A DNA stretch of 64,000 nucleotides from Escherichia coli (GCF_002854065.1 NZ_CP024147.1), one strand, 5' to 3'. Counted from the stretch's first letter, positions 945 through 52,319 are shown. The notes: generated by a model not told the origin, from the sequence alone. Made by a program: numbers and translations.

Positions 945-1090
945 CGGGAAAGCCCCTCCCGAAGAAGGGGCCTTGTATAAGGAAAGGGTTATGATGAAGC
1001 TCGTCATCATACTGATTGTGTTGTTACTCGTAAGTTTCGCAGCTTATTAACAGCCAATCAGAGGGGGAGAAATCCTCCCTCACCCTTGTT
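945..1090 (-). ncRNA. sibD: Sib-family antisense sRNA overlapping ibsD (ends approximate)
   Basis: Established arrangement for Ibs/Sib loci: antisense RNA fully overlaps the toxin ORF; GCCCCT/AGGGGC hairpin near 948-975 could act as its terminator; ends not determinable from sequence alone. Confidence 0.4.
991..1050 (+). CDS. ibsD: Ibs-family type I toxin, 19 aa hydrophobic peptide (MMKLVIILIVLLLVSFAAY)
   Basis: ATGATG start after AAGGAAAGGG Shine-Dalgarno; 19 codons then TAA; below the ORF-track length cutoff, found by eye. Confidence 0.75.
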   Translation: MMKLVIILIVLLLVSFAAY

Positions 1091-1319
1091 CCTTTACTTT
1101 AGGTTGAAAAAAAATCAGCGTCAAGAAGGTTTCATTAACACATATCCCTGGCCCAAAAAGCCGGGGATTTTTTATATCTGCGTTCCGCTAAAAGGTGCAA
1201 ATGCTCAGGACGTTGCAGCGTTTTGCGTGACCGCTCGGGGAAGGCAAAACTGCTTCAGGGAAAGCGTTGCGCGGGGTCCGGCGCTCATCAACAATCGGGG
1301 AGTCAGCAAGGGGCTGAAA

Positions 1320-1465
1320 CGGGAAAGCCCCTCCCGAGGAAGGGGCCTTATAGAAGGAAAGGGTTATGATGAAGCTCGTCATCATACTGGTTGTGTTGTT
1401 ACTGTTAAGTTTCCCGACTTACTAACAACTCATCAGAGGGGGGAGAAATCCTCCCTTACCCTTGT
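1320..1465 (-). ncRNA. sibE: Sib-family antisense sRNA overlapping ibsE (ends approximate)
   Basis: Same as sibD, in repeat copy 2. Confidence 0.4.
1366..1425 (+). CDS. ibsE: Ibs-family type I toxin, 19 aa hydrophobic peptide (MMKLVIILVVLLLLSFPTY)
   Basis: Same architecture in repeat copy 2. Confidence 0.75.
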   Translation: MMKLVIILVVLLLLSFPTY

Positions 1466-1544
1466 TCCTTTACTCTAGGTTGAAAAAACAACAGCGTCAA
1501 TAGGCCTGCCATGTACGAAGCGAGATCTGTGAACCGCTTTCCGG

Positions 1545-7190: not shown

Positions 7191-7431
7191 GGCCTTTACT
7201 TATCGGTTATGTCACATAAGTGACGATGAACGGCGAACTTAATGCGATCTTTTTTGTCAGTAGATAGTATTTTGCGCCAAATTGCCATGCAACGGGCAAT
7301 TTGACGGGCGTAAAAGTTTGAAGCAGTGGCAAGACCTGACACAGAGGATTCCGATTGATGTCGAATGCTTTGCGTAGCGACACTGATGCCACTACTATCG
7401 TTCCACTTTCCATGACAATAACGACAGCCTG

Positions 7432-8052
7432 ATGCCAAAATTACGCCTGATCGGATTAACTTTACTCGCACTTAGCGCGACTGCCGTCTCACACGCTGAA
7501 GAAACGCGCTATGTTTCCGACGAACTGAATACCTGGGTCCGCAGCGGTCCGGGAGATCATTATCGCCTCGTGGGCACGGTTAACGCCGGCGAGGAAGTGA
7601 CCTTATTACAAACTGACGCCAACACCAATTATGCCCAGGTGAAAGACAGCTCTGGCCGTACCGCCTGGATCCCGTTGAAACAACTTAGCACTGAGCCAAG
7701 CCTGCGCTCCCGTGTGCCAGATCTGGAAAATCAGGTCAAAACCCTGACCGATAAACTCACTAATATCGATAACACCTGGAATCAGCGCACCGCAGAAATG
7801 CAGCAAAAAGTGGCGCAGAGCGACAGCGTGATCAACGGGTTAAAAGAAGAAAATCAGAAACTGAAAAACGAGCTGATTGTCGCGCAGAAAAAGGTCGATG
7901 CCGCCAGCGTACAGCTGGATGACAAACAGCGCACCATCATCATGCAATGGTTTATGTATGGCGGTGGCGTGCTGGGGCTTGGCTTGCTGCTCGGTCTGGT
8001 ACTGCCGCACCTGATCCCAAGCCGCAAACGCAAAGATCGCTGGATGAACTAA
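7432..8052 (+). CDS. ygiM: SH3-domain protein with signal peptide and C-terminal membrane anchor
   Basis: 206 aa ORF; N-terminal signal-like segment; synteny. Confidence 0.9.
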   Translation: MPKLRLIGLTLLALSATAVSHAEETRYVSDELNTWVRSGPGDHYRLVGTVNAGEEVTLLQTDANTNYAQVKDSSGRTAWIPLKQLSTEPSLRSRVPDLENQVKTLTDKLTNIDNTWNQRTAEMQQKVAQSDSVINGLKEENQKLKNELIVAQKKVDAASVQLDDKQRTIIMQWFMYGGGVLGLGLLLGLVLPHLIPSRKRKDRWMN

Positions 8053-9368: not shown

Positions 9369-9493
9369 GCCGGATGCGGCGTAAACGCCTTATCCGGCTA
9401 CATGTCAACGACAGTTGTAGGCCTGATAAGACGCGCAAGCGTCGCATCAGGCGTTGATTGCCGGATGCGGCGTGAACGCCTTATTCGGCCTAC
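9369..9493. repeat. REP/BIME cluster (three REP palindromes)
   Basis: gccggatgcggcgtaaacgccttatccggc, gcctgataagacgcgcaagcgtcgcatcaggc, gccggatgcggcgtgaacgccttattcggcctac. Confidence 0.75.
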
Positions 9494-11549: not shown

Positions 11550-12482
11550 CTACATGACCTGATAGCCTTCATCGGGCTTGCCCAGCCGTTGCTGGCACCA
11601 TGCCGCCAGAAATTCCACGCAGACACGTAATTTCATGCTGCGATAGAGCGGCTCCCGGTAAACAGCCCAGATATTGGCGCTTTGTGCATACTCCGGCAAT
11701 ACTCGCACCAGTTTGCCACTCTCCAGAAACGGCAACACATCCCACTCGGAACGCAGCATAATCCCTTTGCCCTCCAGCGCCCATTGCAGCACAATCTCGC
11801 CGCTATTGGAGGAAAGATGCCCGCTAACCTTCACCGATTTTTTCTCCTGACCGTTCCCCAACTCCCATATTCCGTGGGTCATATCGCGCTCTTTGGTCAC
11901 CAGACAGTCATGACGACTTAATTCCTGTAGGGATTGTGGCTGCGGATATTTTTGCAGATACTCAGGTGCTGCGCATAATATTCTTTTATTTTTCGTTAAC
12001 AGATGCGCAATATAATAATCAGGAATTTCGTCATTAATACGAATATCCAGATCAATATTATCCTGCACTAAATCAATTTGCCGATCGAACAATTCAAAAT
12101 GCACCTGTAACTCAGGATAATTGCGCATAAGTTCGGTAATGGCTGGCGCAATATGGCTGCGCCCAAAACCAAAACTGCAACCAATACGAATCATCCCCTC
12201 CGGGCGCGTTTTGATTTGCGTGACGTCATCAACCAGTCGCTGATATTGGGTGAGGATTTCCAGCGCATGTTCGTAACAACGTTGGCCACTTTCAGTCAGC
12301 GCCACGCCGCGAGCGGAGCGGTTCAGCAGCGTTGTTGCCAGCGTATTTTCAAGGATTTGGATCCGCTTGGTGACAAATGCAGGCGTTTGCCCAAGCGTCG
12401 CCGCTGCAGCACTAAAACTCCCGCTGTGGACGATTTCTACCAGTACCTGCAAGTCTTTGGCTAAAGGCCAGCTATTCAGCAT
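11550..12482 (-). CDS. ttdR: LysR-family regulator of tartrate dehydratase
   Basis: 310 aa LysR-type ORF divergent from ttdA. Confidence 0.9.
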
Positions 12483-12688
12483 CGTTAATTATCCGCAGTT
12501 GTGATAAGCGCAGTGTATTTCGCAAAACATTGCCATTCCCTGCTCTGGCGCAATATTCATTCTTATTTTCGCGTTGATTCACGAACTGTTAATTACATAT
12601 TCACGGTGGCAAAAAATATAAAACCACATTTTTAGTGGTAGTTTGTAGCGGTGAATTTTTCCAGACAAATACAGAAACTGGAGTTGCC

Positions 12689-21195: not shown

Positions 21196-21699
21196 TCGCC
21201 CACGCACCACCAGCGCCTGGTCCAGCTCGCGATACGCTTCAACCAGTTTCTCCAGTGAAACGCGACTTAAACCGCTGGGATTTGGCAGCACCCAAATCTG
21301 CGTCGAACCAATGCTGAGCGTTTGTTTCCCCCACTGTGCACCGCGCTGGCTGAATCCCTGTTCATATGCTTGTTTGCCCAGAATCGCCAACGCTTGCGGC
21401 TGATAATCTTCAATTTTTTCAATCAGCTTACGCCCACCTGCGTGTAGCTCTTGCTTTGAAATTTCATTGGCTTTCACCGTTGGACGGTCTACCAGTTTGG
21501 TGACGCCACAACGATAATCCAGCAGATGCTGTGCCTCCTGCGGCTTCAACTGACGGTCGGTAAACCCGGCCTGATATATCACCTTCCAGAAGCGATTTGC
21601 CGGATGAGCAAAGGGAAAACCAGTCCCGGCGGATGAAAGCCCAGGGTTGATACCGCAAAACACGACCCGTAACCCTGGAGCCAAAATATCCTCAACCAT
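21193..21699 (-). CDS. mug: G/U mismatch-specific uracil-DNA glycosylase
   Basis: 168 aa, [20 protein letters not shown]. Confidence 0.95.
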
Positions 21700-21823
21700 A
21701 TTTACTCCTTTCTAACATCACCAGGAAAAGTATAACGGATTGAAAATACATTGTTTATAAAAACAGCAGGCGCGCGGTAATGGCTGGATTGCGACACGGA
21801 GTTACTTTATAATCCGCTACCAT

Positions 21824-21899
21824 GGCCCCTTAGCTCAGTGGTTAGAGCAGGCGACTCATAATCGCTTGGTCGCTGGTTCAAGTCCAGCAGGGGCCACCA
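21824..21899 (+). tRNA. ileX: tRNA-Ile (anticodon CAU, lysidine-type); island integration target
   Basis: 76 nt cloverleaf: acceptor ggcccct/aggggcc, anticodon loop ctCATaa, T-arm ggttcaagtcc, 3' CCA encoded; position between mug and yqjH. Confidence 0.85.
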
Positions 21900-21912
21900 G
21901 ATATAGCAAAGG
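21853..21912 (+). repeat. Left copy of 60-bp direct repeat (tRNA 3' half plus 13 bp) bounding the island
   Basis: Identical 60-mer gactcataatcgcttggtcgctggttcaagtccagcaggggccaccagatatagcaaagg also at 61569-61628. Confidence 0.8.
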
Positions 21913-36973: not shown

Positions 36974-37085
36974 TGGAGCACCTCAAAAACACCATCATAC
37001 ACTAAATCAGTAAGTTGGCAGCATCACCCAGTTAAGCGTATTATTGGTGCAGAGCCCGGGCGTACCGGGCTCCGTTTTGAGGGGG

Positions 37086-37499
37086 TTATGTCCGGACCAG
37101 CGCTTTTTCTGACACCACCATTTTTATTTGCCCATGGTTAGTGAAGTGTACGCTCATCCTGTGGTTTTTTTGCAGTTGCTGATAGAGTTCATCAGGTATT
37201 GCTAAGCTCTCTGCATATTCTTGCGGCGTGTATTGGTATGCTGCATGATGCTGCTGTTTTTGATAACGCAGCTTGTTGTACAGCGCCCAGATAATTAACA
37301 CGACGGCATTCGTCACCGCCACGAAAAAATAGAACTGAAGTCTGCTTCGGGCATCGCTTTGCCAGTAATAACCCGACAGCAGATCCATGGCGAATAAGAA
37401 TATAAACAAAGCAAATAACGCCCACAGGATAGTCGTAGCTACATAATCAACCAATAAATGTACTGGCGATTGTCGGGTCGTAATAATTAAATTGTTCAT
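37086..37499 (-). CDS. pgaD: PGA synthesis protein PgaD
   Basis: 137 aa, [41 protein letters not shown]. Confidence 0.9.
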
Positions 37500-37500
37500 A

Positions 37501-38826
37501 TTAACCTCTCAGAATACCACGATCTGGGCTTATCCAACGGGCGCGTTGCTTTTTATGCATCAACATGACTCGTGTAAATGAAACCAACGTCGTTGCAAGA
37601 CTCAGTACCCAGAAAATGACCGGGAACCAGATAATCCAGAGAAGCGATGAAGCAAGATTATGCTCATAGCGATTCTCAATTACCAGACTGACAATAAATT
37701 GTACTAAACATAACGCACATAATAATATTCCTGCAGTATGTGTCTCGGCGATATGTGTCAATTCAATATTTAACGGTACACCTGCAAGCTGGACCACGTA
37801 AATAATGAAACCAACAAGACAGGTAAAGGCCCATATTGTCGTCAGGCAATATTCAAAAAACAACGGCCACATTCGTACGTTTTCTTTACGCCATAATCTG
37901 GTCATATTTTTGAGGAATACTTCTGCACCACCCTGGGCCCAGCGCAGGCGTTGTTTCCATAGCCCTTTTAATGTTTCCGGCATTAATATCCAGCACAGCG
38001 CCCGTGGCTCGTAAAAAATTGTCCACTGATTCAACTGCAGCTTCCAGCTAATATCAATATCTTCGGTGATCATATCGTCACTCCAGTAACCCACTTCAGC
38101 CAGGGCACTGCGACGAAATGCAGCGATAACGCCGGAAACAGTAAATACGTTTCCATAGATACGCTGGGTGCGTTTGATCAAACCAATAATTGAGGAAAAC
38201 TCGCCAACCTGAATTTTACCTATCAGAGTTGAACGTGTACGTATGCGAGGATTACCGGTTACAGCACCCACGCGAGGGTTGTATAACATTGGTTCAACAA
38301 TATACGCCGCCGCATCGCGATCTAATAACGCGTCGCCATCGATACACACCAGATATTCGCTTTTCGCCGCGGCTGCTCCGGTTTTAAGCGCAATGGCTTT
38401 CCCCTGGTTTTGCGCCAGATGAATGACTCGCAGACGGGGAATTTCCGCAGCCAGTTGATCCAGGATCGCACGGGTTTTGTCTGTTGAACCGTCATTTACA
38501 GCAATAACTTCAATGTTCTCATAACGCTGTGCCAGAGCTGCGTGTATGGTTTCCTCAACGTTTTTCTCCTCATTAAAACAGGGAATGATAATGGAGATAG
38601 ACGGATTATCTTTCAGCTGTGGAGCTGGTGCGTTTTCTCCCCACGGCCAATGGCGTTCGCGATAGGCCCAGAAATAGACTCCGCCAACAATCCACAGAAT
38701 GGACATAAAAAATGGCCAGAAGAAAACGAACCTCATCATCAATTCGCCAGAATGAAAGTACGCTACACATAGGGGTATGCATAACACCAGACATAATATA
38801 AAAAACGATACGATACGATTAATCAT
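37501..38826 (-). CDS. pgaC: Poly-beta-1,6-N-acetylglucosamine synthase PgaC (GT2)
   Basis: 441 aa membrane glycosyltransferase with QRLRWAQG-type motif. Confidence 0.9.
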
Positions 38827-40837
38827 TTTTCGGATACCAGGCTGTGGAAAACTCAGGACGAATAACGTCTATTTCAGGTTTGTTATGCAGGAAGTTATCG
38901 GGATAATAACCATAATTTTTCACTCCATTCAGTTGGAAAAGGCTCATCCAGTGAGCAAGTTTTTGCGAAGAAATAGCCTGATGCTGACCATTGTTCTGCC
39001 AGTTTTGTGCCTGTAATTCTAAAATAGATTTATCTTTTGCTTGAGGGATGCTTTTAATCTGATTGACCAGTTGTATTAACCATTGATCAGCAGATTTCTC
39101 ATCAACTCCTTCCATATAGGGCATTGCCATGATTGCCGTCCAGTCATAGCTTTGTAGAAAATCGGCATAGTTTTGGGCAAACCATGCTTCACTTTCTGGC
39201 TGCATAACGGGGAGGGCAAAAATATTTCTCGCAGTCTTAATTTGTGGGCCGCGAACAGCCTTGACTTTGGCGCTTAGCGCTAATGTGAAGTCTGTTAAGG
39301 CCTTGCGTTTAAATTGCGTCCAGCGTTTAAATTGCTCAGGATCCTCGCGGATTTCACGAATACTCGTCGCAAATCCTGCTTTCTTATAAGCAGCTATTGC
39401 TGGAGCACTGGCATCTTCGTAATCTGACAACACGGCATCGTCATGAAACAAAATGCCATCAAAAGACGCATGACCTGCAAGATCCTCATAAAGGGTACTA
39501 ATTTGTTCACGTACCCGGTCATCGAAAAGGGAGAGACGACGGTATTGCGCTGGATGAATTTGTGATGCTTGCTTATCAAATGGCAAATATTCCACCCGGG
39601 GTAATGCAGGATCTAAATCCCAACTCAATACCGGCATCCAGGCGTAAACGGCCACTCCGGCACGAGTCCTTAATTGCCATGCAACACGGTTAAACAAATC
39701 CGCTTTCATGGGTAACAGGCGATTAGGAAACCAGACCTCTTTAACCAGACCATCACCTGCTGGGTCGGCGAAAGCCTGCAAATACACACTGGAAATTTGC
39801 ATATCTTTCACCCGCTGAATCAACACATCCAGATTTCGCTCCAGCTGTTGGCGGTCAGCATCATAAACATAATCGAGATCGATGTGCATAACTCGCTCTG
39901 GTGATGTTTCCTGCACACCAATAATTTGCTGAGCAAACTCTTTAAGTGATGGATTATTGGCGATTAATACGCGCGGAATAGAATCTAACTGGGAAATATT
40001 TCCCAGTCCGGACTCCAGAGTGAAGAACATGTCATAACCCAGTTTTTTTAATTCCTCAATCGCAATACCGTTTGCTGCACCATAGGGCCAGACAAAAACC
40101 TGGGCATTTACGCCAGCATTTGTTTTCAACTTCTCGGTCATTTTTACGGCATCCTGACGAATGCGGCTGCGATATTCCGCTTCGGTTTCGTATCGCTCAT
40201 TATTTGAAAAATACATGCGATTAACAAAAGCGGGTAATTTGCTGCCAGTGGGATTAGCCTCAATACCGTAGTGAAAATTCCAGGTATGCGAGGCTATTTC
40301 AACCAACTTCGAACGTCCTATTTCACGCACTTGTTGCCAGGTGGCAAAATAGTCTCTGTCTACCATTTCATCGCCAAATTTAACTTGTTGATTCATCGGC
40401 GTGTCTATCCAACTGCCAACCGGTGCCCATAATGCGGGCCACTGGAATGCTTGCAGAATAGGGAATACACGGCTGTAAAAACTCTGAAATCCATCATCAA
40501 AGGAGAGTAAAACCGCTTTATTAGGTAGCGGTTTTCCCCCACGGTGAGCTTCCCGAATTTGGTCAACGCTGACGGGGTGATAGCCATTTTCACGAAGCCA
40601 TGCAAATTGTTCACGAAGCGCAGAAGTTCGCACTGACATAAAACGCTGATCAGCAGTATCGTCTTCAACATTATGCCAGGAGATGGCTACAAAGTTATTT
40701 TGTGGCCACGGATGTTCTGCCTTTAAAGATTCTCGACTTTGTGGTGGCGTAAACTTATTGTTTTGATGATTAAAACATGCAGAAAGCATAGCAATGCTAA
40801 TCAACAAAAACAGATATCTTATTCCTTTACGTAACAT
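38819..40837 (-). CDS. pgaB: PGA N-deacetylase lipoprotein PgaB
   Basis: 672 aa with lipobox-like N-terminus (LSAC). Confidence 0.9.
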
Positions 40838-40845
40838 AATGATCC

Positions 40846-43266
40846 TTAAAATTTGAATGTCATATCAAATTCAACATATAAATTATGCTCTCTGTTGCCG
40901 TCATAAGGCCGCTTTTCCCAACGTACCGTTGCACCGGCATTTATTACGTCATTCCACGCAACGCGTTGCCCATACCCCAGTTGTGTAACTAGATCGGTAC
41001 CATAATTTTTTTGCCATGAGGTACCAGCGCCTGCGCTAAATATTTGCTGCCAGCTATTCTCGTATTTACGCCACAATAAATGGCTTGCCTCCAGTGCCGG
41101 AACAATATCGAGCGTTTTTTCCGGGTTAAAATAGGGGGTGTCTTTTTTTGTATTCTGGCCGTAATAAATTGTGGGCTGAAAATCAATAATCAGTCGGGAT
41201 GAAGACCACATCCGTTCACTACCATTGATAAATACTTCGTGACGTTGGTTTCCATCAGAAAAATCAGTAAATGCCCATGAACTGCTGTATTGACGACGCT
41301 CATTCTGATACCAGCGTAAATATGCCTGAGCACTGTTGCCGGTTATGCCATTTTTCATTGCCCGTAGGGGGACTCGATGAGAGATGCGTTCCAGTTCAGC
41401 ACCAAGTCGCCAGTTGTCGTTAAAATCGTACCAGCCTGATAAACGTGCACCGGGTTTATGTTCGCCATTAAAATAACGTCCAGCAAATTCTGCTTCCAGC
41501 CAGATGTCGCGCGAACGCCATTCGAGGCCAGTTAACCAGTCACGAACAATCCCTTTCCCCTCGCTGAATTGACCATCAGCATAGCCAAAACCAGCAAAAG
41601 CACGCCAGTTTTCATTCAGCGGTGGTGAGTACACAACGCTGGTAAAATTCACATCATGTTTGCCATTATCCGGACCTTCGGAATCCAATCCAGAAGAACC
41701 TGAAATACGTAGTTCAGCCATGTCATGTACTTCAAGCGCACGCTGTATACGTTTTACCGCGGGGGCTTCAGGATTGCGGGTGACCACATCTTCAGTTAAT
41801 ACTTTCGCCTGTTTCCACTCCTGCAATGTTAATGCATTCCAGGCCTGTTCAACCTCCAGCAGTATATTTCTTGGCTCAAGTAGTTCGGCTTTTTTTAATT
41901 CTGTTTCTGCAGCACGAGGTAAACCACGAGCCTGTAATACGCTGGCGTAGTCGATGCGTAATCCCTGATTACCCGGTGCGTTATTGCTCATATTTCGGGT
42001 TATTGCTTCAGCTTGTGGTAAATCATTACCGTATTGCGCAGCCGCTGAAAGGAACGAATAACCCTGTAGCCACTTGTCATTAGGTATCGTTACAGGAGAA
42101 CCCATAATCCGACGGTATGGAGATGCTGTAGTAATGGTGTGATCAGTGAGCATTAACACCCCACTATAATTCTCACTTTCCAGATGGCTGTAAAAGAGAT
42201 CTGCACGCTCTTCTTCGGATAATTCAATATTTGGTTGTGCCTGGTGATAGAACAGTTGGGTCATCATCGCTTGTGCTTTTCCCGGTTGACGATCGTGCAG
42301 ATAAGCGGAAGCAACCCAATACTGTGCCCAGGGGGGAACAGATTGCCCTGTATTTTGTAAATGCTGATAATGAGAAATAACATCTTTGTAGCGTTCGCGG
42401 GTTAACAACGCGCCAAGATGGTCAACCTGAATACGCTGGTATTGTGCAATTCGGTCTGGGTTGTTTTGCCACAGAATATCTAATGCGGTGTATTGGGCGA
42501 GGGCGCGATCGGCAATGGCATAGCGTTCACTTTCACTGCGCGTAGGCATAAATGACAGTCTGACCAATTCGGCATGAATATCAGCGCGGATATCCGGCGT
42601 TAAATTGGCATCGTCAATGGCGGCAGAAAGCTGATTATTACGTAATGCCTGTACGTATTCTTCCGTATATTGCGTAGAGGAATTTTCAGGTAATGATTCT
42701 GTCATTGCCCGTAATTCATCTTGATGACGACCTGCCAGTTTATAGATATAGGCTTCTGCGAGTAAATTGGCTTTGTCAGGTGTACCGGACTTAATCTGCT
42801 GAAGTTTAACCAGTGCAGTGTCATAGTGACCCGCATCTGCCAGGGTTAAAATTTGTCCCCGTTGATAATCTTTATTTTGCGGCTCCAGAGAGAGAGTCTT
42901 TTGCCACAGTGTCAGTGAGTTTTGCCATTGCTGCATGTTACGATAAGCGATGGCGGCAGCCGCATAAGCGCGCGCGGGTAATTGCTGGTGACGGTAGCGG
43001 TTGTAAACGCTAATAACCTGTTTATCTTGTCCAGCCCATAAGGCAATCTGTAGCCAGTCAGCAATCTGGTTATTACTGAGTACAGACTTTTGTGCAAACC
43101 ATGTTAAAGCTGGCTGAGTATTACCCTTGCGAGCTTCAATAATCAATGCATCATAGGCGTTATTAACTGCACTATTCGCAACGGGACTCGACGCTAAAAA
43201 TGCAGCGGTAAGAAAATTCAAAACCAATTTGGTTTTTGGGCACCTTTTTTTACTACTTGAATACAT
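40846..43266 (-). CDS. pgaA: PGA export outer-membrane porin PgaA (TPR plus beta-barrel)
   Basis: 806 aa, MYSSSKKRCPKTK... ending ...EFDMTFKF. Confidence 0.9.
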   Translation of the reverse strand: MYSSSKKRCPKTKLVLNFLTAAFLASSPVANSAVNNAYDALIIEARKGNTQPALTWFAQKSVLSNNQIADWLQIALWAGQDKQVISVYNRYRHQQLPARAYAAAAIAYRNMQQWQNSLTLWQKTLSLEPQNKDYQRGQILTLADAGHYDTALVKLQQIKSGTPDKANLLAEAYIYKLAGRHQDELRAMTESLPENSSTQYTEEYVQALRNNQLSAAIDDANLTPDIRADIHAELVRLSFMPTRSESERYAIADRALAQYTALDILWQNNPDRIAQYQRIQVDHLGALLTRERYKDVISHYQHLQNTGQSVPPWAQYWVASAYLHDRQPGKAQAMMTQLFYHQAQPNIELSEEERADLFYSHLESENYSGVLMLTDHTITTASPYRRIMGSPVTIPNDKWLQGYSFLSAAAQYGNDLPQAEAITRNMSNNAPGNQGLRIDYASVLQARGLPRAAETELKKAELLEPRNILLEVEQAWNALTLQEWKQAKVLTEDVVTRNPEAPAVKRIQRALEVHDMAELRISGSSGLDSEGPDNGKHDVNFTSVVYSPPLNENWRAFAGFGYADGQFSEGKGIVRDWLTGLEWRSRDIWLEAEFAGRYFNGEHKPGARLSGWYDFNDNWRLGAELERISHRVPLRAMKNGITGNSAQAYLRWYQNERRQYSSSWAFTDFSDGNQRHEVFINGSERMWSSSRLIIDFQPTIYYGQNTKKDTPYFNPEKTLDIVPALEASHLLWRKYENSWQQIFSAGAGTSWQKNYGTDLVTQLGYGQRVAWNDVINAGATVRWEKRPYDGNREHNLYVEFDMTFKF

Positions 43267-43772
43267 CCTGTATTACTCCATGTATTGCAAAAATACTCTC
43301 TTCGCGAATGTCCAGTTGGCTGAAAAGAAAAGACTTATTCACATCAAAAACCCGTAATTAAACGAGGAATAAAGACGCTAATTGTTGATAGTGAGATGAA
43401 GAAATGGTGAGCTGAGTGTTCCTATCAAATCCTTTACTTTCCTCGAAAATCCATCCCAAAAGGGAAGGACTACGGGGATTCTGCATAATTCCCTATGCGT
43501 CTTTCAAGGTAATAAAGGATTAAAATAATTAAATCAGTAAATTCCGAGTGGTGATTTCGGATTTTTCGAAAACCCTGATTCAATGCGGTGTTGCAGCATT
43601 ATTTTCTGTAATAATTACTCTTGATGACTATATGAATTATTGTTTTATGGGGGGGTATAATGATTTATGAGTTTTTACAACTTATTGCAGTAGTGAATCT
43701 GTAAAATATTAAGATGGTGATTGTTTACCTGTGTAACTATGCTCGTTAGGGAAGGTGCGAACAAGTTCCTGA

Positions 43773-43943
<171 letters not shown>

Positions 43944-43956
43944 TAGTGACTCCAAC

Positions 43957-44460
43957 TTACTGATAGTGTTTTATGTTCAGATAATGCCCGATGACCTTGT
44001 CATGCAGCTCCACCGATTTTGAGAACGACAGTGACTTCCGTCCCAGCCTTGCCAGATGTTGTCTCAGATTCAGGTTATGTCGCTCAATGCGCTGAGTGTA
44101 ACGCTTGCTGATAACGTGCAGCTTTCCCTTCAGGCGGGGTTCATACAGCGGCCAGCCATCCGTCATCCATACCACGACCTCAAAGGCCGACAGCAGGCTC
44201 AGAAGACGCTCCAGTGTGGCCAGAGTGCGTTCACCGAAGACGTGCGCCACAACCGTCCTCCGTATCCTGTCATACGCGTAAAACAGCCAGCGCTGACGTG
44301 ATTTAGCACCGACGTAGCCCCACTGTTCGTCCATTTCCGCGCAGACGATGACGTCACTGCCCGGCTGTATGCGCGAGGTTACCGACTGCGGCCTGAGTTT
44401 TTTAAATGGCGGAAAATCGTGTTGAGGCCAACGCCCATAATGCGGGCAGTTGCCCGGCAT
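43957..44460 (-). CDS. insB: IS1 InsB (copy 2)
   Basis: 167 aa. Confidence 0.85.
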
Positions 44461-44654
44461 CCAACGCCATTCATGGCCATATCAATGATTTTCTGGTGCG
44501 TACCGGGTTGAGAAGCGGTGTAAGTGAACTGCAGTTGCCATGTTTTACGGCAGTGAGAGCAGAGATAGCGCTGATGTCCGGCAGTGCTTTTGCCGTTACG
44601 TACCACCCCGTCAGTAGCTGAACAGGAGGGACAGCTGATAGAAACAGAAGCCAC
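44379..44654 (-). CDS. insA: IS1 InsA (copy 2)
   Basis: 91 aa, near-identical to copy 1. Confidence 0.9.
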
Positions 44655-44686
44655 TAGAGCACCTCAAAAACACCATCATACACTAA

Positions 44687-45571
<885 letters not shown>

Positions 45572-45823
45572 TAAAAACCGGAAATAACGCCAGAAATGGT
45601 GGAAAAAATAGCCTAAATAGGCTGATTCGATGTGTTTGCGGGAAAAAAATCGGCCCAGATCCGCGAAATTTTAATCAACGAGTCAGCTTGGGAAGAAATG
45701 ACCTGCTTATTCGCACCTTCCTTAGTATCTATTATATTTAGCTATTTATATTGACAATGGCATGTTTATTATATCTATTAATAGTGTAAAGAGATTTTAC
45801 AGCCTTCAGGTTGGAGTGGTTTT

Positions 45824-47191
45824 ATGATGAAGGACTATTTTGGAATTGGTAGTACGGTATTTGTGAGTTTGTTGTTCGGGCTTGCATTTATTTTGGTGAA
45901 TAGTTGGTTTCATCAGCCGACTGTTAAGGAGACTGTTCCGCAATCGACATATCTGATGGTTATGATTGCTCTGTTTGTTATTGATATAATAGCATTCATT
46001 TTTATGCAGTTATATTTCATTTATGATCGTCGACAATTTTCAAACTGTATACTTGGTTTAGCCTTTCTTAGCTGTCTGATTTACTTCATTAAAACAGTCA
46101 TTATCATTCAGCAACCTATTGAGAGGGGGCTAACTAACAGCATTATTCAAAATGATACTGCTATTTATTATTTTTTCAGGCAGGTAAGCTTATGTTTATT
46201 GATTAATCTGGCGCTGGTAATTAAGTTGAATGAAAAAAATGATTTGTGTGAAAGGTGGCATAAAAGAATCGGTTTTTACATCAGTGTGATTTTTATAGTT
46301 GGCCTGCCCATTATTGCTTTCATATTTAGTAGCCAATGTGAGAACTATAGTTTAACTATAGCTGAGTTATTAAATAAAAATGGCCGAGTTGTGTGGAAAA
46401 CGTCTTATGTTATCGTGCTGATATTTATGTGGTTAATGCTGTTGGCAGTTAATTTATATTTCAATCGTTTGCGTAGTGATATCTGGAATGGGGTATCGGT
46501 GATTGCTTTTTGTGCTGTGCTATATAATGTCTCTCTTTTATTTATAGGGAGGTATAGTGTATCCATTTGGTATATTAGTCGAACTATTGAGTTGTTCAGC
46601 AAGTTAACAGTTATGGCGATATTCATGTGTCATGTATTCAGTGCGTTGCGCGTGACAAAGGATATTGCACATCGCGATCCATTAACCAATGTTTTTAACA
46701 GAAATTATTTTTTCAATGAACTGAAAAATCAATCAGCATTAGCCAAAAAAAAACCTTATTGCGTCATGATTATGGATATTGACCACTTCAAAAAAGTCAA
46801 TGACACCTGGGGGCATCCGGTTGGCGATCAAGTGATTAAAACAGTGGTGAAAATCATTGGGAAAAGTATACGGCCAAACGATCTTTTAGCACGCGTTGGC
46901 GGAGAAGAGTTTGGTGTTATGTTGACGGAGATCGATTATGAAAATGCGGAAGCCTTAGCTGAAAGGATTCGGGCAAATGTTGAGCGTTTGACGGGAGATA
47001 ATCCTGAATATGCCATCCCACAAAAAGTAACGATTAGCATTGGTGCCGTGGTGATGCATGGAAATTCGTTAAAACCGAATGAGATTTATCGGTTGGCTGA
47101 TAAAGCGCTTTATAACGCGAAAGAGTCAGGACGTAACAAGGTTGTTATGACGGAGGCAGAAAATCTTATGAACTGGAAGGATGATGATTAA
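45824..47191 (+). CDS. dgcT: Membrane-anchored diguanylate cyclase (GGEEF), DgcT/YcdT-like
   Basis: 455 aa; N-terminal transmembrane segments; RVGGEEFGVM active-site motif. Confidence 0.8.
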   Translation: MMKDYFGIGSTVFVSLLFGLAFILVNSWFHQPTVKETVPQSTYLMVMIALFVIDIIAFIFMQLYFIYDRRQFSNCILGLAFLSCLIYFIKTVIIIQQPIERGLTNSIIQNDTAIYYFFRQVSLCLLINLALVIKLNEKNDLCERWHKRIGFYISVIFIVGLPIIAFIFSSQCENYSLTIAELLNKNGRVVWKTSYVIVLIFMWLMLLAVNLYFNRLRSDIWNGVSVIAFCAVLYNVSLLFIGRYSVSIWYISRTIELFSKLTVMAIFMCHVFSALRVTKDIAHRDPLTNVFNRNYFFNELKNQSALAKKKPYCVMIMDIDHFKKVNDTWGHPVGDQVIKTVVKIIGKSIRPNDLLARVGGEEFGVMLTEIDYENAEALAERIRANVERLTGDNPEYAIPQKVTISIGAVVMHGNSLKPNEIYRLADKALYNAKESGRNKVVMTEAENLMNWKDDD

Positions 47192-47296
47192 TTCTGTCGC
47201 CAGTTGTCGAACCCCTGTCGGGGCTTCTCATCCCCCCGGCATGTGCAACATACGAAAAAAAAGCCCGTACTTTCGTACGAGCTCTTCTTTAAATAT

Positions 47297-47310
47297 GGCG
47301 GTGAGGGGGA
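47297..47310 (-). other. 14-nt match to the 3' end of a tRNA-Ser gene (reverse complement), candidate att core
   Basis: tggcggtgaggggg equals the reverse complement of ...CCCCCTCACCGCCA as I recall the tRNA-Ser(GGA) 3' end; a short match, could be chance. Confidence 0.3.
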
Positions 47311-47469
47311 CCGCCTGAAATAAATCTGACTTAATCCGGGAGTGTTATATAACCTCATTATAAACAATGCATTACAATTTTTGCTGTCCGATGTTATCTA
47401 ATGTATTCTTAGTGAAGTGAGAGACTAATGGCATACTGAATGGCATACCAGAGTAACAGGAATTAGCGT

Positions 47470-48678
47470 ATGGCAGTATTGACGGATACTAAAGCAAGGC
47501 ATATCAAACCTGATGACAAACCATTGCCCCATGGGGGAATTACAGGACTGACTCTTCATCCTTCTTCAGTAAAGGGGAGGGGTAAATGGGTTTTTCGTTA
47601 TGTAAGTCCGGTGACACAAAAAAGGCGTAATGCTGGATTGGGAACTTATCCTGAGGTCAGTATTGCTGAAGCTGCACGTACTGCCCGGATAATGCGAGAG
47701 CAACTTGCTGCAGGTGATGATCCTCTGGAGATTAAAAAGGCTGAAGCTGAAAAAGTTGTTATCCCAACATTTGCCGATGCAGCCCGGCGTGTACATGCAG
47801 AATTGTCACCGGGATGGGAAAACCCAAAGCATGTCAGGCAGTGGTTGTCGACGCTTGAAAATTACGTGTTTCCTCAACTGGGAGCAAAAACGCTGGATAC
47901 GATTACGGCTGCGGACGTGGCAGAGACACTGCGTCCAGTCTGGTTGACCTTATCAGAAACGGCAAGCCGGGTTAAACAGCGCATTCATGTTGTTATGCAG
48001 TGGGGCTGGGCGCATGGTTTTTGTGTGGCGAATCCTGTTGATGTGGTTGATCATTTGCTTCCACAGCAATCAAGAGGACGTGATGAACACCAGCCGGCAA
48101 TGCCCTGGAGGCAGTTACCGCTTTTTGTGGCGACCAGTGTGTATACAGATGAACCTTATAATGTTACCCGGGCACTGTTATTAATGGTGATACTGACAGC
48201 AACCCGCTCGGGCGAAGCAAGGGGAATGCGCTGGGCTGAAATTGATTTTCATAAGCGGATATGGACGATACCCGCAGAAAGAATGAAAGCCAGGATACAG
48301 CATCGTGTTCCTTTATCCCGACAGGCCATTCACGTTCTGGAAAATATACGTGGTCTGCATGACGAACTGGTGTTTCCTTCTCCCAGAAAGCAGCAGATCC
48401 TTTCAGATATGGTGTTGACGAGTTTTCTGCGTAAAAAGAAGGCCATCAGTGATATACCCGGACGAGTGGCTACAGCACATGGTTTTCGTTCAACATTCAG
48501 GGACTGGTGTAGCGAACAGGGATATTCGCGGGATTTGGCGGAAAGGGCGCTTGCCCATACGCTGAAAAATAAGGTTGAGGCGGCATATCACCGGACTGAT
48601 CTGCTGGATCAGCGTATACCGATGATGCAGGCATGGGCGGATTATGTGATGTCTCAGATTATGGAAAACCAGCGATGA
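47470..48678 (+). CDS. Tyrosine recombinase / integrase (internal to island)
   Basis: 402 aa; C-terminal catalytic region with HGFRSTFRDW and AYHRTD (R-H-R-Y type). Confidence 0.85.
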   Translation: MAVLTDTKARHIKPDDKPLPHGGITGLTLHPSSVKGRGKWVFRYVSPVTQKRRNAGLGTYPEVSIAEAARTARIMREQLAAGDDPLEIKKAEAEKVVIPTFADAARRVHAELSPGWENPKHVRQWLSTLENYVFPQLGAKTLDTITAADVAETLRPVWLTLSETASRVKQRIHVVMQWGWAHGFCVANPVDVVDHLLPQQSRGRDEHQPAMPWRQLPLFVATSVYTDEPYNVTRALLLMVILTATRSGEARGMRWAEIDFHKRIWTIPAERMKARIQHRVPLSRQAIHVLENIRGLHDELVFPSPRKQQILSDMVLTSFLRKKKAISDIPGRVATAHGFRSTFRDWCSEQGYSRDLAERALAHTLKNKVEAAYHRTDLLDQRIPMMQAWADYVMSQIMENQR

Positions 48679-48901
48679 AATCACATCTCACAGATTTGCA
48701 GATGTCGTCTGTAATCACGAAAAATATACTTATTGAGTTATAATGCTTGTTTGTCTGATATTTGCAATGACATAAATGTAAAAATAATACGTAATATTGT
48801 AGTTTATAAATTGAATGATAAAAACAATGCCAGTTTGTAACCGATGTCTGGCATTGTTTCAGATATTCAGGTTGGTAACTGAATGATAAAAGACGGGAAC
48901 T

Positions 48902-49254
48902 TTAATTTTTTGTAGTTATGTTCCATATTTTAGTCTGTTCTTCATTTCTGTACTTATTCAGCTTATGGTCCCAACAGACTATAAACATTCCACGCTCCAT
49001 TATCGGGATGTTTGCCTCATTTGCTAATTCACAAGGTGTAATCGCGTCACCGATATAAATGATTTTTTGGCCGATTGAATAATCAATTACGATTTTTTTC
49101 TGTTCTGCAAGTATATCAAGTGCTTCATCAAGAACACATTTATTCCTGAGAGCATATGGACCATATTGCAGTATATGGCTTTTTTGATATTCGTATCCTT
49201 TTACCCGGATGATATTTTCTCTGAGCCATTTATCCAGTTTTTCTGCAGGAGATA
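48902..49254 (-). pseudogene. 5'-truncated gene remnant (about 117 C-terminal codons) ending at the IS903 boundary
   Basis: Open frame without a start: ...LSPAEKLDKWLRENIIRVKGYEYQKSHILQYGPYALRNKCVLDEALDILAEQKKIVIDY...NITTKN. Confidence 0.4.
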
Positions 49255-50311
49255 GGCTTTGTTGAATAAATCGAACTTTTGCTGAGTTGAAGGATCAGAT
49301 CACGCATCTTCCCGACAACGCAGACCGTTCCGTGGCAAAGCAAAAGTTCAAAATCACCAACTGGCCCACCTACAATAAAGCCCTCATCAACCGTGGCTCC
49401 ATAACTTTCTGGCTGGATGATGAAGCTATTCAGGCCTGGTATGAGTCAGCAACACCTTCTTCACGAGGCAGACCTCAGCGCTATTCTGACCTTGCCATCA
49501 CGACTGTGCTGGTCATTAAACGCGTATTCAGGCTGACCCTGCGCGCTGCGCAGGGCTTTATTGATTCCATTTTTTCTCTGATGAACGTTCCGCTACGCTG
49601 CCCGGATTACAGCTGTGTCAGCAGGCGGGCAAAGTCGGTTAATGTCAGTTTCAAAACGCCCACCCGGGGTGAAATCGCACACCTGGCAATTGATTCCACC
49701 GGGCTGAAGGTCTTCGGTGAAGGCGAGTGGAAAGTCAAAAAGCATGGCCAGGAACGCCGCCGTATCTGGCGTAAGCTGCATCTCGCCGTTGACAGTAAAA
49801 CACATGAAATCATCTGTGCAGACCTGTCGCTGAACAACGTTACGGACTCAGAGGCCTTCCCCGGGTTAATCCGGCAAACCCACCGGAAAATCAGGTCAGC
49901 CGCCGCCGATGGCGCTTACGATACCCGGCTATGTCACGATGAACTGCGGCGTAAGAAAATCAGCGCGCTTATCCCTCCCCGAAAAGGTGCGGGTTACTGG
50001 CCCGGTGAATATGCAGACCGTAACCGTGCAGTGGCTAATCAGCGAATGACCGGGAGTAATGCGCGGTGGAAATGGACAACAGATTACAACCGTCGCTCGA
50101 TAGCGGAAACGGCGATGTACCGGGTAAAACAGCTGTTCGGGGGGGCACTGACGCTGCGTGACTACGATGGTCAGGTTGCGGAGGCTATGGCCCTGGTACG
50201 AGCGCTGAACAAAATGACGAAAGCAGGTATGCCTGAAAGCGTGCGTATTGCCTGAAAACACAACCCGCTACGGGGGAGACTTACCCGAAATCTGATTTAT
50301 TCAACAAAGCC
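49255..50311 (+). mobile_element. IS903-group insertion sequence (IS5 family), 1057 bp, no target-site duplication
   Basis: 18-bp terminal inverted repeats ggctttgttgaataaatc / gatttattcaacaaagcc; flanks caggagata / actctgatc differ. Confidence 0.88.
49287..50255 (+). CDS. IS903-type DDE transposase
   Basis: 322 aa, ...TNWPTYNKALINRGSITFWLDDEAIQAWYE... Confidence 0.85.
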   Translation: MKDQITHLPDNADRSVAKQKFKITNWPTYNKALINRGSITFWLDDEAIQAWYESATPSSRGRPQRYSDLAITTVLVIKRVFRLTLRAAQGFIDSIFSLMNVPLRCPDYSCVSRRAKSVNVSFKTPTRGEIAHLAIDSTGLKVFGEGEWKVKKHGQERRRIWRKLHLAVDSKTHEIICADLSLNNVTDSEAFPGLIRQTHRKIRSAAADGAYDTRLCHDELRRKKISALIPPRKGAGYWPGEYADRNRAVANQRMTGSNARWKWTTDYNRRSIAETAMYRVKQLFGGALTLRDYDGQVAEAMALVRALNKMTKAGMPESVRIA

Positions 50312-50816: not shown

Positions 50817-51091
50817 ACTCATCGTATTCTCTCGACACTCACCACTCTTTTTATTCGGAATAGGTGAGTGCCATACATTATATTTTTAAAAGTAGATAAC
50901 ATGTCGTTCATATCGACTTATAATTGATTTATTCATATGTAAGACATATACCTCCGTGTTTCCTTTCAGAGCAACTGGATGATAAATGATATCGCTGTTT
51001 TCTCGACTAACCCGATAGGATGCGGTATCTGAGCAATACACACTCAACACCCCACTTGAACTGATCCTACCCACGTAATATGGACACAGGC

Positions 51092-51958
51092 CTAAGCGAG
51101 GTTCTTGTTTTCAAATTGTTCCGGACTGAGGCCGCCACACCAACTGTGCCGCCGCCACCGATTGTAATCACATTCGATATAATTAAACACCGTTGCCCGC
51201 ATTATTTCCCGGCTGATAAAGTGTTCTCCATGGATACATTCCACTTTCAGCGAATGAAAGAAGCTTTCCACGCAGGCATTATCGTAGCAGCAACCTTTTG
51301 CGCTCATACTTCCACGCAGATTATGCCGCTTCAGTTGCGCCTGATAATCTGCTGAACAGTACTGGCCTCCACGGTCCGTGTGAACGATAACGTTCCGGGG
51401 CCTCTTACGCCGCCACAGCGCCATCTGCAGGGCATCGCAGGCCAGTTGCGCCGTCATGCGTGGCGACATTGACCAGCCAATAACGGCACGTGACCACAGG
51501 TCAATGACCACTGCCAGATACAGCCAGCCTTCATCTGTACGTAAGTACGTGATGTCTCCTGCCCACTTCTGGTTCGGGCCACTGGCGTAAAAATCCTGCT
51601 CCAACAGATTTTCTGACACAGGCAGGCCGTGTGCGCGGTAGCTGACCGGGCTGAACTTCCGGGAGGCCTTTGCCCTCAGTCCCTGACGGCGCAGGCTTGC
51701 CGCCACGGTTTTTACGTTAAAGGGGTAACCCTGAGCACGCAGTTCATCCGTCAGGCGTGGGGCACCGTAACGCTGTTTTGACCGGGTAAAAGCCGCGAGG
51801 ACAACGCTGTCGCAGTGTTGGCGGAACTGCTGACGCGTGCTTATCCTTGTCCGCCGCTGACACCACGTATACCAGCCGCTGCGGGCCACCCGGAGCACGC
51901 GGCACATTGCTTTGATGCTGAACTCAGCCTGATGTTTTTCAATAAAGACATACTTCAT
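51092..51958 (-). CDS. insF: IS3 OrfB (InsF), DDE transposase
   Basis: 288 aa [38 protein letters not shown]. Confidence 0.88.
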
Positions 51959-52254
51959 TTCAGGCGCTTCGCGAAGTATGTCGCGGCCTTTTGGAGGATA
52001 GCCAGCTCTTCATCCCGTTCTGCCAGCTGGCGTTTGAGACGTGCAATCTCGGTAGACATCTCCAGTTCACGTTCAGAAGACGTCTGCTGATTTTGCTGTT
52101 TACTGCGCCAGTTGTAGAGCTGTGATTCATACAGGCTGAGTTCACGGGCTGCGGCAGTAACACCGATGCGTTCAGCAAGCTTCAGGGCTTCACTGCGAAA
52201 TTCAGGCGAATGCTGTTTACGGGGTTTTTTACTGGTTGATACTGTTTTTGTCAT
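51955..52254 (-). CDS. insE: IS3 OrfA (InsE)
   Basis: [53 protein letters not shown]. Confidence 0.88.
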
Positions 52255-52319
52255 GTGAGTCACCTCTGACTGAGAGTTTACTCACTTAGCCGCGTGTCCA
52301 CTATTGCTGGGTAAGATCA

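Follow-up and report, generated by a model that had tools for sequence, protein, structure and literature searches.

O-islands 43 and 48 (OI-43/48) of strain EDL933 are bounded by perfect 14-bp repeats, TGGCGGTGAGGGGG, which are the last 14 bp of serW and serX (Bielaszewska et al., PMC3064760). Identical repeats occur in the Shigella SRL island (PMC3064760). In OI-43/48, a P4-family integrase with 99% DNA identity to the SRL int lies at the clpA or ycdU end (PMC3064760). Both islands excise through recombination between the 14-bp repeats (PMC3064760). For the SRL pathogenicity island (PAI), int is needed for precise excision (review).

Here we describe a related junction in a 64-kb stretch of E. 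coli DNA (the window), which has the order dnaG-rpoD-mug, ileX, an island of ~40 kb and nfeF-nfeR. A sequence-only reading had pointed to a 402-aa tyrosine recombinase inside this island and had suggested a nested or captured element, in which a chunk of a tRNA-Ser region, with its own integrase and att core, had been taken into the ileX island. The ORF is present on the plus strand and opens with ATG (int402), and capture of such a chunk is supported. Nesting did not hold up: what is found is one junction with its flank, cut by insertion sequences and lacking a partner repeat.

With the SRL PAI, the locus shares the 14-bp core and a P4-family integrase, the relation of int402 to the SRL int being drawn through the published OI-43/48 figures. 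It differs in having one repeat and one arm, in carrying no resistance or fec cargo and no small HTH gene, and in lying inside an ileX island rather than at serX. Compared to OI-43/48 of O157:H7 (tellurite/adherence; SpLE1 in Sakai), the core is identical, the arm is 92.5% identical and the integrase gene is 93.7% identical to that of OI-48, which directly follows ycdU. The layout is also alike: OI-43/48 begin, towards ycdU or clpA, with the cryptic ser'X or ser'W, directly followed by int as their first gene, and have the intact tRNA gene at the far end. However, OI-43/48 are complete: they span 80-90 kb, have both repeats and show measurable excision, whereas the window holds ~2 kb of island DNA and its chromosomal flank. 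The nearest relatives on the island side are those of TUM1886 and Z1323CEC0007, which carry raffinose/sucrose or ter cargo. TUM1886 has the same gene order as the window (dgcT-unit-core-int), but these two islands are complete, lie at their native tRNA and have a K-12-type dgcT/pga flank that is 79-82% identical to the captured one. We consider it very probable that positions 47192-49255 represent the integrase-proximal end of an island of the SRL-PAI / OI-43/48 type, still joined to its original chromosome and moved as such into an ileX/ileY island.

Features of the captured segment and of its host island (positions in the window)
Feature	Position	Strand	Basis
ileX tRNA gene	21824-21899	+	tRNA detection
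Left 60-bp direct repeat: 3' 47 nt of ileX plus 13 nt	21853-21912	+	exact 60-mer found twice
IS1, left boundary of the captured segment	36261-37028	-	sequence read directly
pgaDCBA operon with 57 bp of the pgaD-phoH spacer, captured flank	37029-43749	-	ORFs, nucleotide identity
dgcT, GGDEF diguanylate cyclase, 455 aa, divergent allele, captured flank	45824-47191	+	ORF, nucleotide identity
serX-downstream unit (rtT-like), one copy, with the native serX terminator hairpin at ~47255-47290; chromosomal flank, not island	47192-47295	-	homology, RNA fold
14-bp att core, the last 14 nt of serX/serW (cryptic ser'X remnant); island/chromosome crossover	47296-47309	-	unique exact match, junction alignment
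Integrase-proximal attachment-site arm of the island, with two direct ATGGCATAC repeats at 47428-47436 and 47440-47448	47310-47469	+	homology to serX/serW islands
int402, intact P4-type tyrosine recombinase of the SRL-PAI / OI-43/48 (serX/serW-specific) group	47470-48678	+	ORF, Pfam, NCBIfam, motifs, identity
yfjI/DUF3987 remnant, last 119 aa only, truncated by IS903B	48905-49255	-	tblastn with TUM1886 YfjI
IS903B, right boundary of the captured segment	49256-50312	+	inspection of the terminal inverted repeats
int438, the host island's own P4-type integrase, ileX/ileY-specific, 438 aa	60056-61372	-	ORF, NCBIfam PRK09692 domain, adjacency to cryptic repeat
Right 60-bp direct repeat: cryptic ileX 3' fragment, then native ileX terminator; adjoins int438	61569-61628	+	exact 60-mer

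The 14-bp core is the island/chromosome crossover

The sequence TGGCGGTGAGGGGG occurs exactly once in the 64-kb window and ends 160 bp upstream of the int402 start codon. The sequence-only reading had given it correctly but placed it one base too far to the right (47297-47310 instead of 47296-47309). An exact copy of a 14-mer would be expected by chance about 0.0005 times in 64 kb, counting both strands. Two further similar sites in the window carry 2 mismatches each, which is the level seen in shuffled sequences. The 14-mer had been taken for the reverse complement of the 3' end of tRNA-Ser(GGA), and it does equal the last 14 nt, CCA included, of K-12 serX. In MG1655, where serX (tRNA-Ser GGA) lies on the minus strand, the gene starts on the plus strand with the same 14-mer (L004 12566-12579). 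The stated proximity of pga/dgcT to a tRNA-Ser gene in K-12 was also accurate: 3.3 kb separate dgcT (1092876-1094234) from serX (1097565-1097652), a space occupied by IS3D, ymdE and ycdU.

Homology to the serX locus extends well beyond the core. Window positions 47194-47309 are 96.6% identical to 116 bp that end inside K-12 serX and comprise the downstream terminator unit and the last 14 nt of the gene. In K-12, serX is followed by ~3.6 tandem repeats with a period of 181 bp, every copy of which closes with 19 nt from the 3' end of the tRNA, and the unit at 47192-47295 is 96.6% identical to each of three of these tandem copies. All serX-downstream units carry the 14-bp core, within 19-27 nt of the tRNA 3' end. 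This arrangement resembles the rtT repeats downstream of tyrT (Rfam RtT), in that serX is likewise trailed by tandem ~181-bp units that close with a copy of the 3' end of the tRNA; the single truncated unit of the window differs in falling below every Rfam threshold. RtT (RF00391) was not matched anywhere in the window, whether the gathering threshold or E<=1 was applied, and sub-threshold matches to MicC and the Thr leader at 47247-47356 reflect the terminator hairpin. In sibling genomes, which have two such units, PGAP labels them "RtT sRNA". The terminator was called by RNA folding of the minus strand, used in place of a consensus scan, which reported the inner stem only and on the wrong strand. 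Folded in this way, 47255-47290 forms a stem of 16 bp with a run of U behind it (-24.7 kcal/mol, z = -5.5).

To the right of the core, the 160-bp arm is identical at all positions (160/160) to the corresponding DNA of the TUM1886 island, which lies at serX, and of the Z1323CEC0007 island, which lies at serW. The ATGGCATAC pair within the arm is also found at the tRNA-proximal end of the Z1323CEC0007 island; in the window, no further ATGGCATAC repeats were found beyond the pair on the integrase side. These repeats are candidate arm-type binding sites for Int402. A reconstructed attP would read tataatc-TGGCGGTGAGGGGG-accgcctgaaat, with both ATGGCATAC arms.

Alignment of the locus to serX and serW, which the sequence-only reading had suggested as a check, identified the 14-mer as the exact point of crossover. 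At the native serX locus of TUM1886, the order is phoH-pgaDCBA-dgcT-unit-core-int-yfjI. Left of the core, identity between the window and TUM1886 is 79.5% for dgcT and 89.7% for the serX-downstream unit; right of it, identity is 100% for the 160-bp arm, 98.9% for int402 and 99.8% for the yfjI remnant (to 49254). Identity to other genomes thus steps at 47309/47310, being 79-90% left of the core and 99-100% right of it. The serW island of Z1323CEC0007, whose left flank is clpA and not dgcT, matches the right side just as closely. That island is complete, and its far end consists of an island-encoded terminator, the motif tataatc, the same 14 bp and the intact body of serW. Conversely, at the empty site of SCPM-O-B-8794, pga is 99.5% and dgcT with the unit 99.3% identical to the window; homology stops at 47309, and tandem units and an intact serX follow.

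We aligned eight junctions (alignment A1), covering integrase-side junctions (TUM1886 and O157:H7 at serX, Z1323CEC0007 at serW), the tRNA side and empty sites. The 14 bp are invariant throughout, and the flanks switch around them as predicted for attL, attR and attB. Because identity changes exactly at the core and the flanks switch around these 14 invariant bases, the 14-mer is the island/chromosome crossover of a serX/serW island. The junction is conserved in more than a thousand genomes.

An intact integrase on a truncated island end

Int402 shows the domain architecture of a P4-type integrase, with an arm-binding N-terminal domain (Arm-DNA-bind_3, 3e-15), a central domain (Phage_int_M, 4.5e-24) and a catalytic domain (Phage_integrase, 1.2e-19), and it matches the NCBIfam PRK09692 domain. 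Inspection of motifs indicated that the catalytic residues are kept (TRSGE with R245, HGFRS with H337 and R340, LAHT, and AAYHR with Y373). The protein has the same length, 402 aa, as its RefSeq homologues. It is 99.5% identical to the integrases of TUM1886 and Z1323CEC0007, to both of which the gene shows the 98.9% nucleotide identity given above. Copies of the gene covering at least 80% of the query are present in 1259 of 5426 complete E. coli genomes. A comparison of the two integrases of the island, also proposed by the sequence-only reading, placed int402 with integrases resident at serX/serW, with only 21% identity to int438, the ileX island's own integrase. By these relationships, int402 belongs to the serX/serW-specific SRL / OI-43/48 group of integrases and, its ORF being intact, could act in trans.

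Beyond int402, little of the island remains. Residues 403-521 of TUM1886 YfjI match the window at 97.5% (tblastn), and homology to the serX/serW islands ends at IS903B. This element has no target-site duplication, its flanks CAGGAGATA and ACTCTGATC being different. On the other side of the captured segment, IS1 likewise lacks a target-site duplication; relative to CUPS03, a strain with a longer form of the island (see below), it takes the place of the whole stretch that runs from phoH through IS2 and the raf genes to the 3' end of hsdR. A search of the window for a second core, allowing up to 2 mismatches, found none, in agreement with the single exact copy; this was the third check suggested by the sequence-only reading, and like the other two it favoured that reading. 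The tRNA-proximal arm and the terminator of complete serW islands are also absent from the window, and neither the small HTH gene nor the 1824-nt ORF of TUM1886 has a match there.

Thus, neither the two directly repeated cores with both arms nor the backbone that adjoins int in complete islands (full yfjI, HTH gene and cargo) is found, and an intact nested island, which we had considered, was dropped, as the window holds no second core, far arm, terminator or further ATGGCATAC. We also asked if the HTH/DUF3987 genes on the int438 side might be the missing half of the yfjI on the int402 side, separated by an intragenic inversion; this was rejected because the two are only 26% identical. Since the segment is cut by insertion sequences and has neither a partner repeat nor a far arm, its content argues that it is a captured junction rather than a nested excisable element, and it should be unable to excise on its own. 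With one core and one arm remaining, the module would be stranded.

The host island is a separate and intact element. As expected for a P4-type ileX/ileY island, it has tRNA-derived repeats at both ends and an integrase of its own, and pairs of the arm-type repeat GGGTCAGGTAA lie at both ends (21958/21970 and 61420/61432). The int438 gene is also found beside an ileY-flanked repeat in LHM10-1, and the host island is apparently mobile. The ileX island and the serX/serW island share a common layout: in each, int lies at the end farther from the intact tRNA gene.

Origin of the captured chromosomal flank

The chromosomal DNA to the left of the core carries four intact pgaDCBA ORFs (137, 441, 672 and 806 aa) and dgcT. 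The window has an IS5::IS1 insertion upstream of pgaA and dgcT. The pga genes are 82.8% identical to those of K-12, 99.0% to the native genes of NT1F10 and 99.5% to those of SCPM-O-B-8794. For dgcT, nucleotide identity is 79% to K-12 and TUM1886, 91% to NT1F10 and 99.3% to SCPM-O-B-8794, where the gene lies next to the empty serX. Because native E. coli loci with 99.0-99.5% identity exist, the captured pga block can be assigned by identity to a divergent E. coli allele class. A source in another species, considered in view of the 82% identity to K-12, was rejected on the same grounds. When species-representative genomes were scanned with DgcT, one close locus only was found, and the peptide patterns proved very allele-specific.

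The segment dgcT-core-int402 is present at 99.6% identity in at least 14 complete genomes. These siblings have two serX units, compared to one in the window, and their junction follows the second unit. One of them, PT62, matches the arrangement of the window, and its native locus reads phoH-DUF2726-serX, with neither pga nor dgcT. We found this pga-less arrangement in 1017 of 5426 genomes, IAI1 included. Because it is common to so many genomes, the pga-less native locus is best read as an old, widespread allele and not as a fresh scar.

A longer form of the ileX island is carried by CUPS03, in which the chunk continues through pgaD-phoH and is followed by an IS2-type element and the raf genes. 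In addition, this strain keeps a complete K-12-type native locus, phoH-pga-dgcT-IS3-ymdE'-ycdU-serX. The island copy and the full native locus occurring together show that the chunk is additional DNA, horizontally acquired from the chromosome of another lineage. Together with the allele identities, this indicates that it came from another E. coli lineage and not from the strain's own serX locus. In CUPS03, the IS2-type element is joined, base-for-base at its terminus, to DNA from upstream of phoH. In the serX island of TUM1886, the same element precedes the same raf genes, at 99.8% identity.

In LHM10-1, the same composite island is found at ileY. Its IS1-pgaD and IS903B junctions are identical to those of the window, another flank lies beyond its cryptic tRNA repeat, and next to IS1 there is a further deletion, which extends into ygaQ. 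An inversion of the chromosome between ileX and ileY, considered as an explanation for this strain, was rejected, as its ileX locus is empty and collinear (nfeF-ileX-mug). The presence of the composite island at ileY shows that the captured chunk travels with the host island.

Proposed route of capture, alternatives and consequences

These observations can be ordered as follows. In another E. coli lineage, the attP of an island would have recombined with the last 14 nt of serX, producing a cryptic ser'X junction (dgcT, serX terminator unit, 14-bp core, island arm and int) and leaving an intact serX at the far end of the island. The target may have been either serX itself or a downstream pseudo-site, since each serX-downstream unit carries the core. 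The junction, together with ~10-11 kb of the chromosome to its left (phoH, pgaDCBA and dgcT), would then have moved into an unrelated P4-type ileX/ileY island, where IS1 and IS903B deletions would have trimmed the insert to 37029-49255. Int402 would normally bind the arm repeats (probably ATGGCATAC) and exchange strands within the 14-bp core, thereby excising the island or integrating it at serX/serW. The partner repeat, the far arm, the small HTH gene (likely an excision factor) and the cargo would have been lost here.

The most likely route is a rearrangement through the end of the IS2-type element at the border of the serX island, followed by recombination into the ileX island. An inversion mediated by this end is suggested because DNA upstream of phoH is fused to the IS2-type terminus in CUPS03 and the same element stands before raf in TUM1886. 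The route is reconstructed from these two genomes rather than from the window: there, the phoH/IS2 junction was removed by IS1, and the left crossover into the ileX island is masked by IS903B. We infer the model of inversion plus recombination on this basis.

In lambda gal/bio specialised transduction, flanking host genes are captured by aberrant excision. The present case is analogous in that genes beside an attachment junction end up in a mobile element, with a hybrid att site in between. It differs in lacking phage packaging, in having its breakpoints at the ends of insertion sequences (IS2-type, IS1 and IS903B) and in that the recipient is an island with a different integrase.

Alternatively, the pga-dgcT-terminator block may already have been cargo of the ileX island when the Int402 island entered a pseudo-att core within it, the far end being deleted later next to IS903B. 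Tandem serX units that carry the core are plausible secondary att sites, and in the sibling genomes the junction indeed follows the second unit and is not at the tRNA gene. However, the order dgcT-unit-core-int exists at native serX loci, and the second repeat and far arm were not found in the window. Moreover, the chunk of CUPS03 has serX-island cargo of the TUM1886 type (IS2-raf, 99.8%) joined to phoH, an arrangement that is hard to obtain by clean integration. We therefore regard such a nested integration as unlikely.

Still less likely is a translocation within one genome, in which the strain's own pga-dgcT region and serX-island end would have moved to the ileX island and left a pga-less locus behind. 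In the genome from which the window comes, the native serX and serW loci lie beyond the window. This reading was first taken from PT62, which has neither pga nor dgcT between phoH and serX. It was dropped after the 1017-genome count, which includes IAI1 and shows the pga-less arrangement to be old and widespread, and after the complete K-12-type native locus was found beside the island copy in CUPS03. The island copy is also 79-83% identical to K-12-type alleles, as against 99.0-99.5% to those of other lineages. Finally, a chance resemblance over only 14 nt, next to an integrase unrelated to tRNA-Ser, has a negligible probability given the 116 bp of contiguous serX-downstream homology, the break in identity at the core, the published identical direct repeat and the conserved junction that more than a thousand genomes share.

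Capture of a serX junction by the ileX island is thus the reading that we retain. Its integrase and 14-bp site are known parts of the SRL / OI-43/48 islands, and the recombinase teaches nothing new. In a limited literature search, we found no relevant report of pga within ileX or serX islands, nor of this captured context. The hybrid attachment junction can be seen as a molecular fossil, showing that ~10 kb of core chromosome (the biofilm-polysaccharide operon pgaABCD and dgcT) stem from the serX locus of another lineage and are now carried by a different, apparently mobile island. The case, of modest interest, illustrates island mosaicism and the mobilisation of a core biofilm operon. It also carries a warning for annotation: a second integrase within an island need not mean an independent element, and a pga operon next to an integrase need not be the native locus.

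Tentatively, one may ask whether the border of a tRNA island can turn neighbouring core genes into mobile cargo. Through a rearrangement at the IS2-type end, the segment phoH-pgaABCD-dgcT might have been flipped into island DNA together with the att junction and int402. The Int438 island might then move a PGA operon, either a second one or the only one, from lineage to lineage and between ileX and ileY; Int402, which is intact and has a lone hybrid site, might in addition recombine with serX/serW and so drive large chromosomal rearrangements. We put this forward as a possibility that is more doubtful than the capture itself. The ileX island brings PGA genes to lineages without them at the native site, a pga-less state found in about one in five complete E. 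coli genomes. In at least one strain, the island provides a second pga operon that is 17% divergent.

Allele classes of pga and dgcT

In E. coli, identity between allele classes of pga and dgcT falls to 79–83%, a depth of divergence that is unusual at a 'core' locus. The class borne by the ileX island shares ~79–84% identity with K-12-type alleles, as measured against K-12 and TUM1886. CUPS03, one of the sibling genomes that carry the same dgcT–core–int402 segment at 99.6% identity, contains two phoH–pgaABCD–dgcT sets: the one at serX is native and of the K-12 type, whereas the one at ileX is divergent and carried by the island. Neither pga nor dgcT is present in the phoH–serX interval of 1017 of the 5426 complete E. 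coli genomes (~19%, including IAI1), where a DUF2726 gene replaces them.

The closest match to the captured pga copy is the native pga locus of NT1F10. In this genome (L011 1–49001), alleles that are unusual at the accession level occur in almost all proteins from flgE to efeB, over a stretch of ~45 kb around serX. This pattern suggests that the native pga locus of NT1F10 lies within a large stretch of recombinant DNA of divergent origin.

Tandem units downstream of serX

Units of ~181 bp, similar to the rtT repeats of tyrT, form a tandem array downstream of serX. Each unit is closed by a copy of the tRNA 3' end, 19–27 nt long, that always includes the 14-bp integrase core. There are ~3.6 units in K-12, 3 in SCPM-O-B-8794, 2 in sibling genomes and 1 in the window, and copy number differs even between 99.6% siblings. 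The units constitute several potential secondary att sites.

Coordinates of features in the window and in the comparison loci
Feature	Sequence	Position	Strand	Remarks
SIB antitoxin RNAs (n=2)	window	976-1124, 1351-1500	-	Rfam gathering-level
naRNA4	window	9420-9490	-	Rfam gathering-level
'IS102 RNA' match	window	29928-30164	-	Rfam gathering-level
Host-island 60-bp exact repeats	window	21853-21912 and 61569-61628		47 nt of ileX + 13 nt
IS5 with internal IS1	window	43750-45723		terminal repeats intact; TTAG duplication on both sides
IS3-family element	window	~51090-52270
serX-downstream units	window; L004 (K-12); L012; L001 (LHM10-1)	47192-47309; 11962-12579; 7365-7847; 21474-21772
ileY-type island, LHM10-1	L001; L039	12480-37120; 1-2500
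phoH-pgaABCD-dgcT sets, CUPS03	L008; L041	33749-42717; 28117-37083
IS2-type element, CUPS03	L008	27777-29111		flanked by TOTE-primase pseudogene and Gp2 pseudogene
pga-less phoH-DUF2726-serX locus, PT62	L009	27949-30368

Host-island ends and the composite island at ileY

The integrase of the host island, int438 (60056–61372), lies at the island end distal to the intact tRNA and reads inward, a layout that serX/serW islands share. Just within both island ends are GGGTCAGGTAA repeat pairs. In LHM10-1, the same composite island, including the pga–dgcT–int402 chunk, occupies the ileY locus while ileX is empty; a deletion adjoining an IS1 extends there over ileY, part of ygaQ and the island's left third. 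Judged by their coordinates, ~4 of the 14 siblings seem to share this ileY arrangement.

Insertion sequences and other RNAs

The IS5 in the window is upstream of both pgaA (by 484 bp) and dgcT (by ~100 bp), and its insertion may alter expression of the captured pgaA, dgcT or both. It was not found in any sibling examined, nor in the empty-site locus of SCPM-O-B-8794. The SIB, naRNA4 and 'IS102 RNA' matches, the last directly upstream of the island's Ag43-type autotransporter gene, are unrelated to the captured junction. In CUPS03, the IS2-type element between the TOTE-primase and Gp2 pseudogenes has a 5-bp CCGAT duplication and is a simple insertion, independent of the other, truncated IS2-type copy that is joined to phoH.
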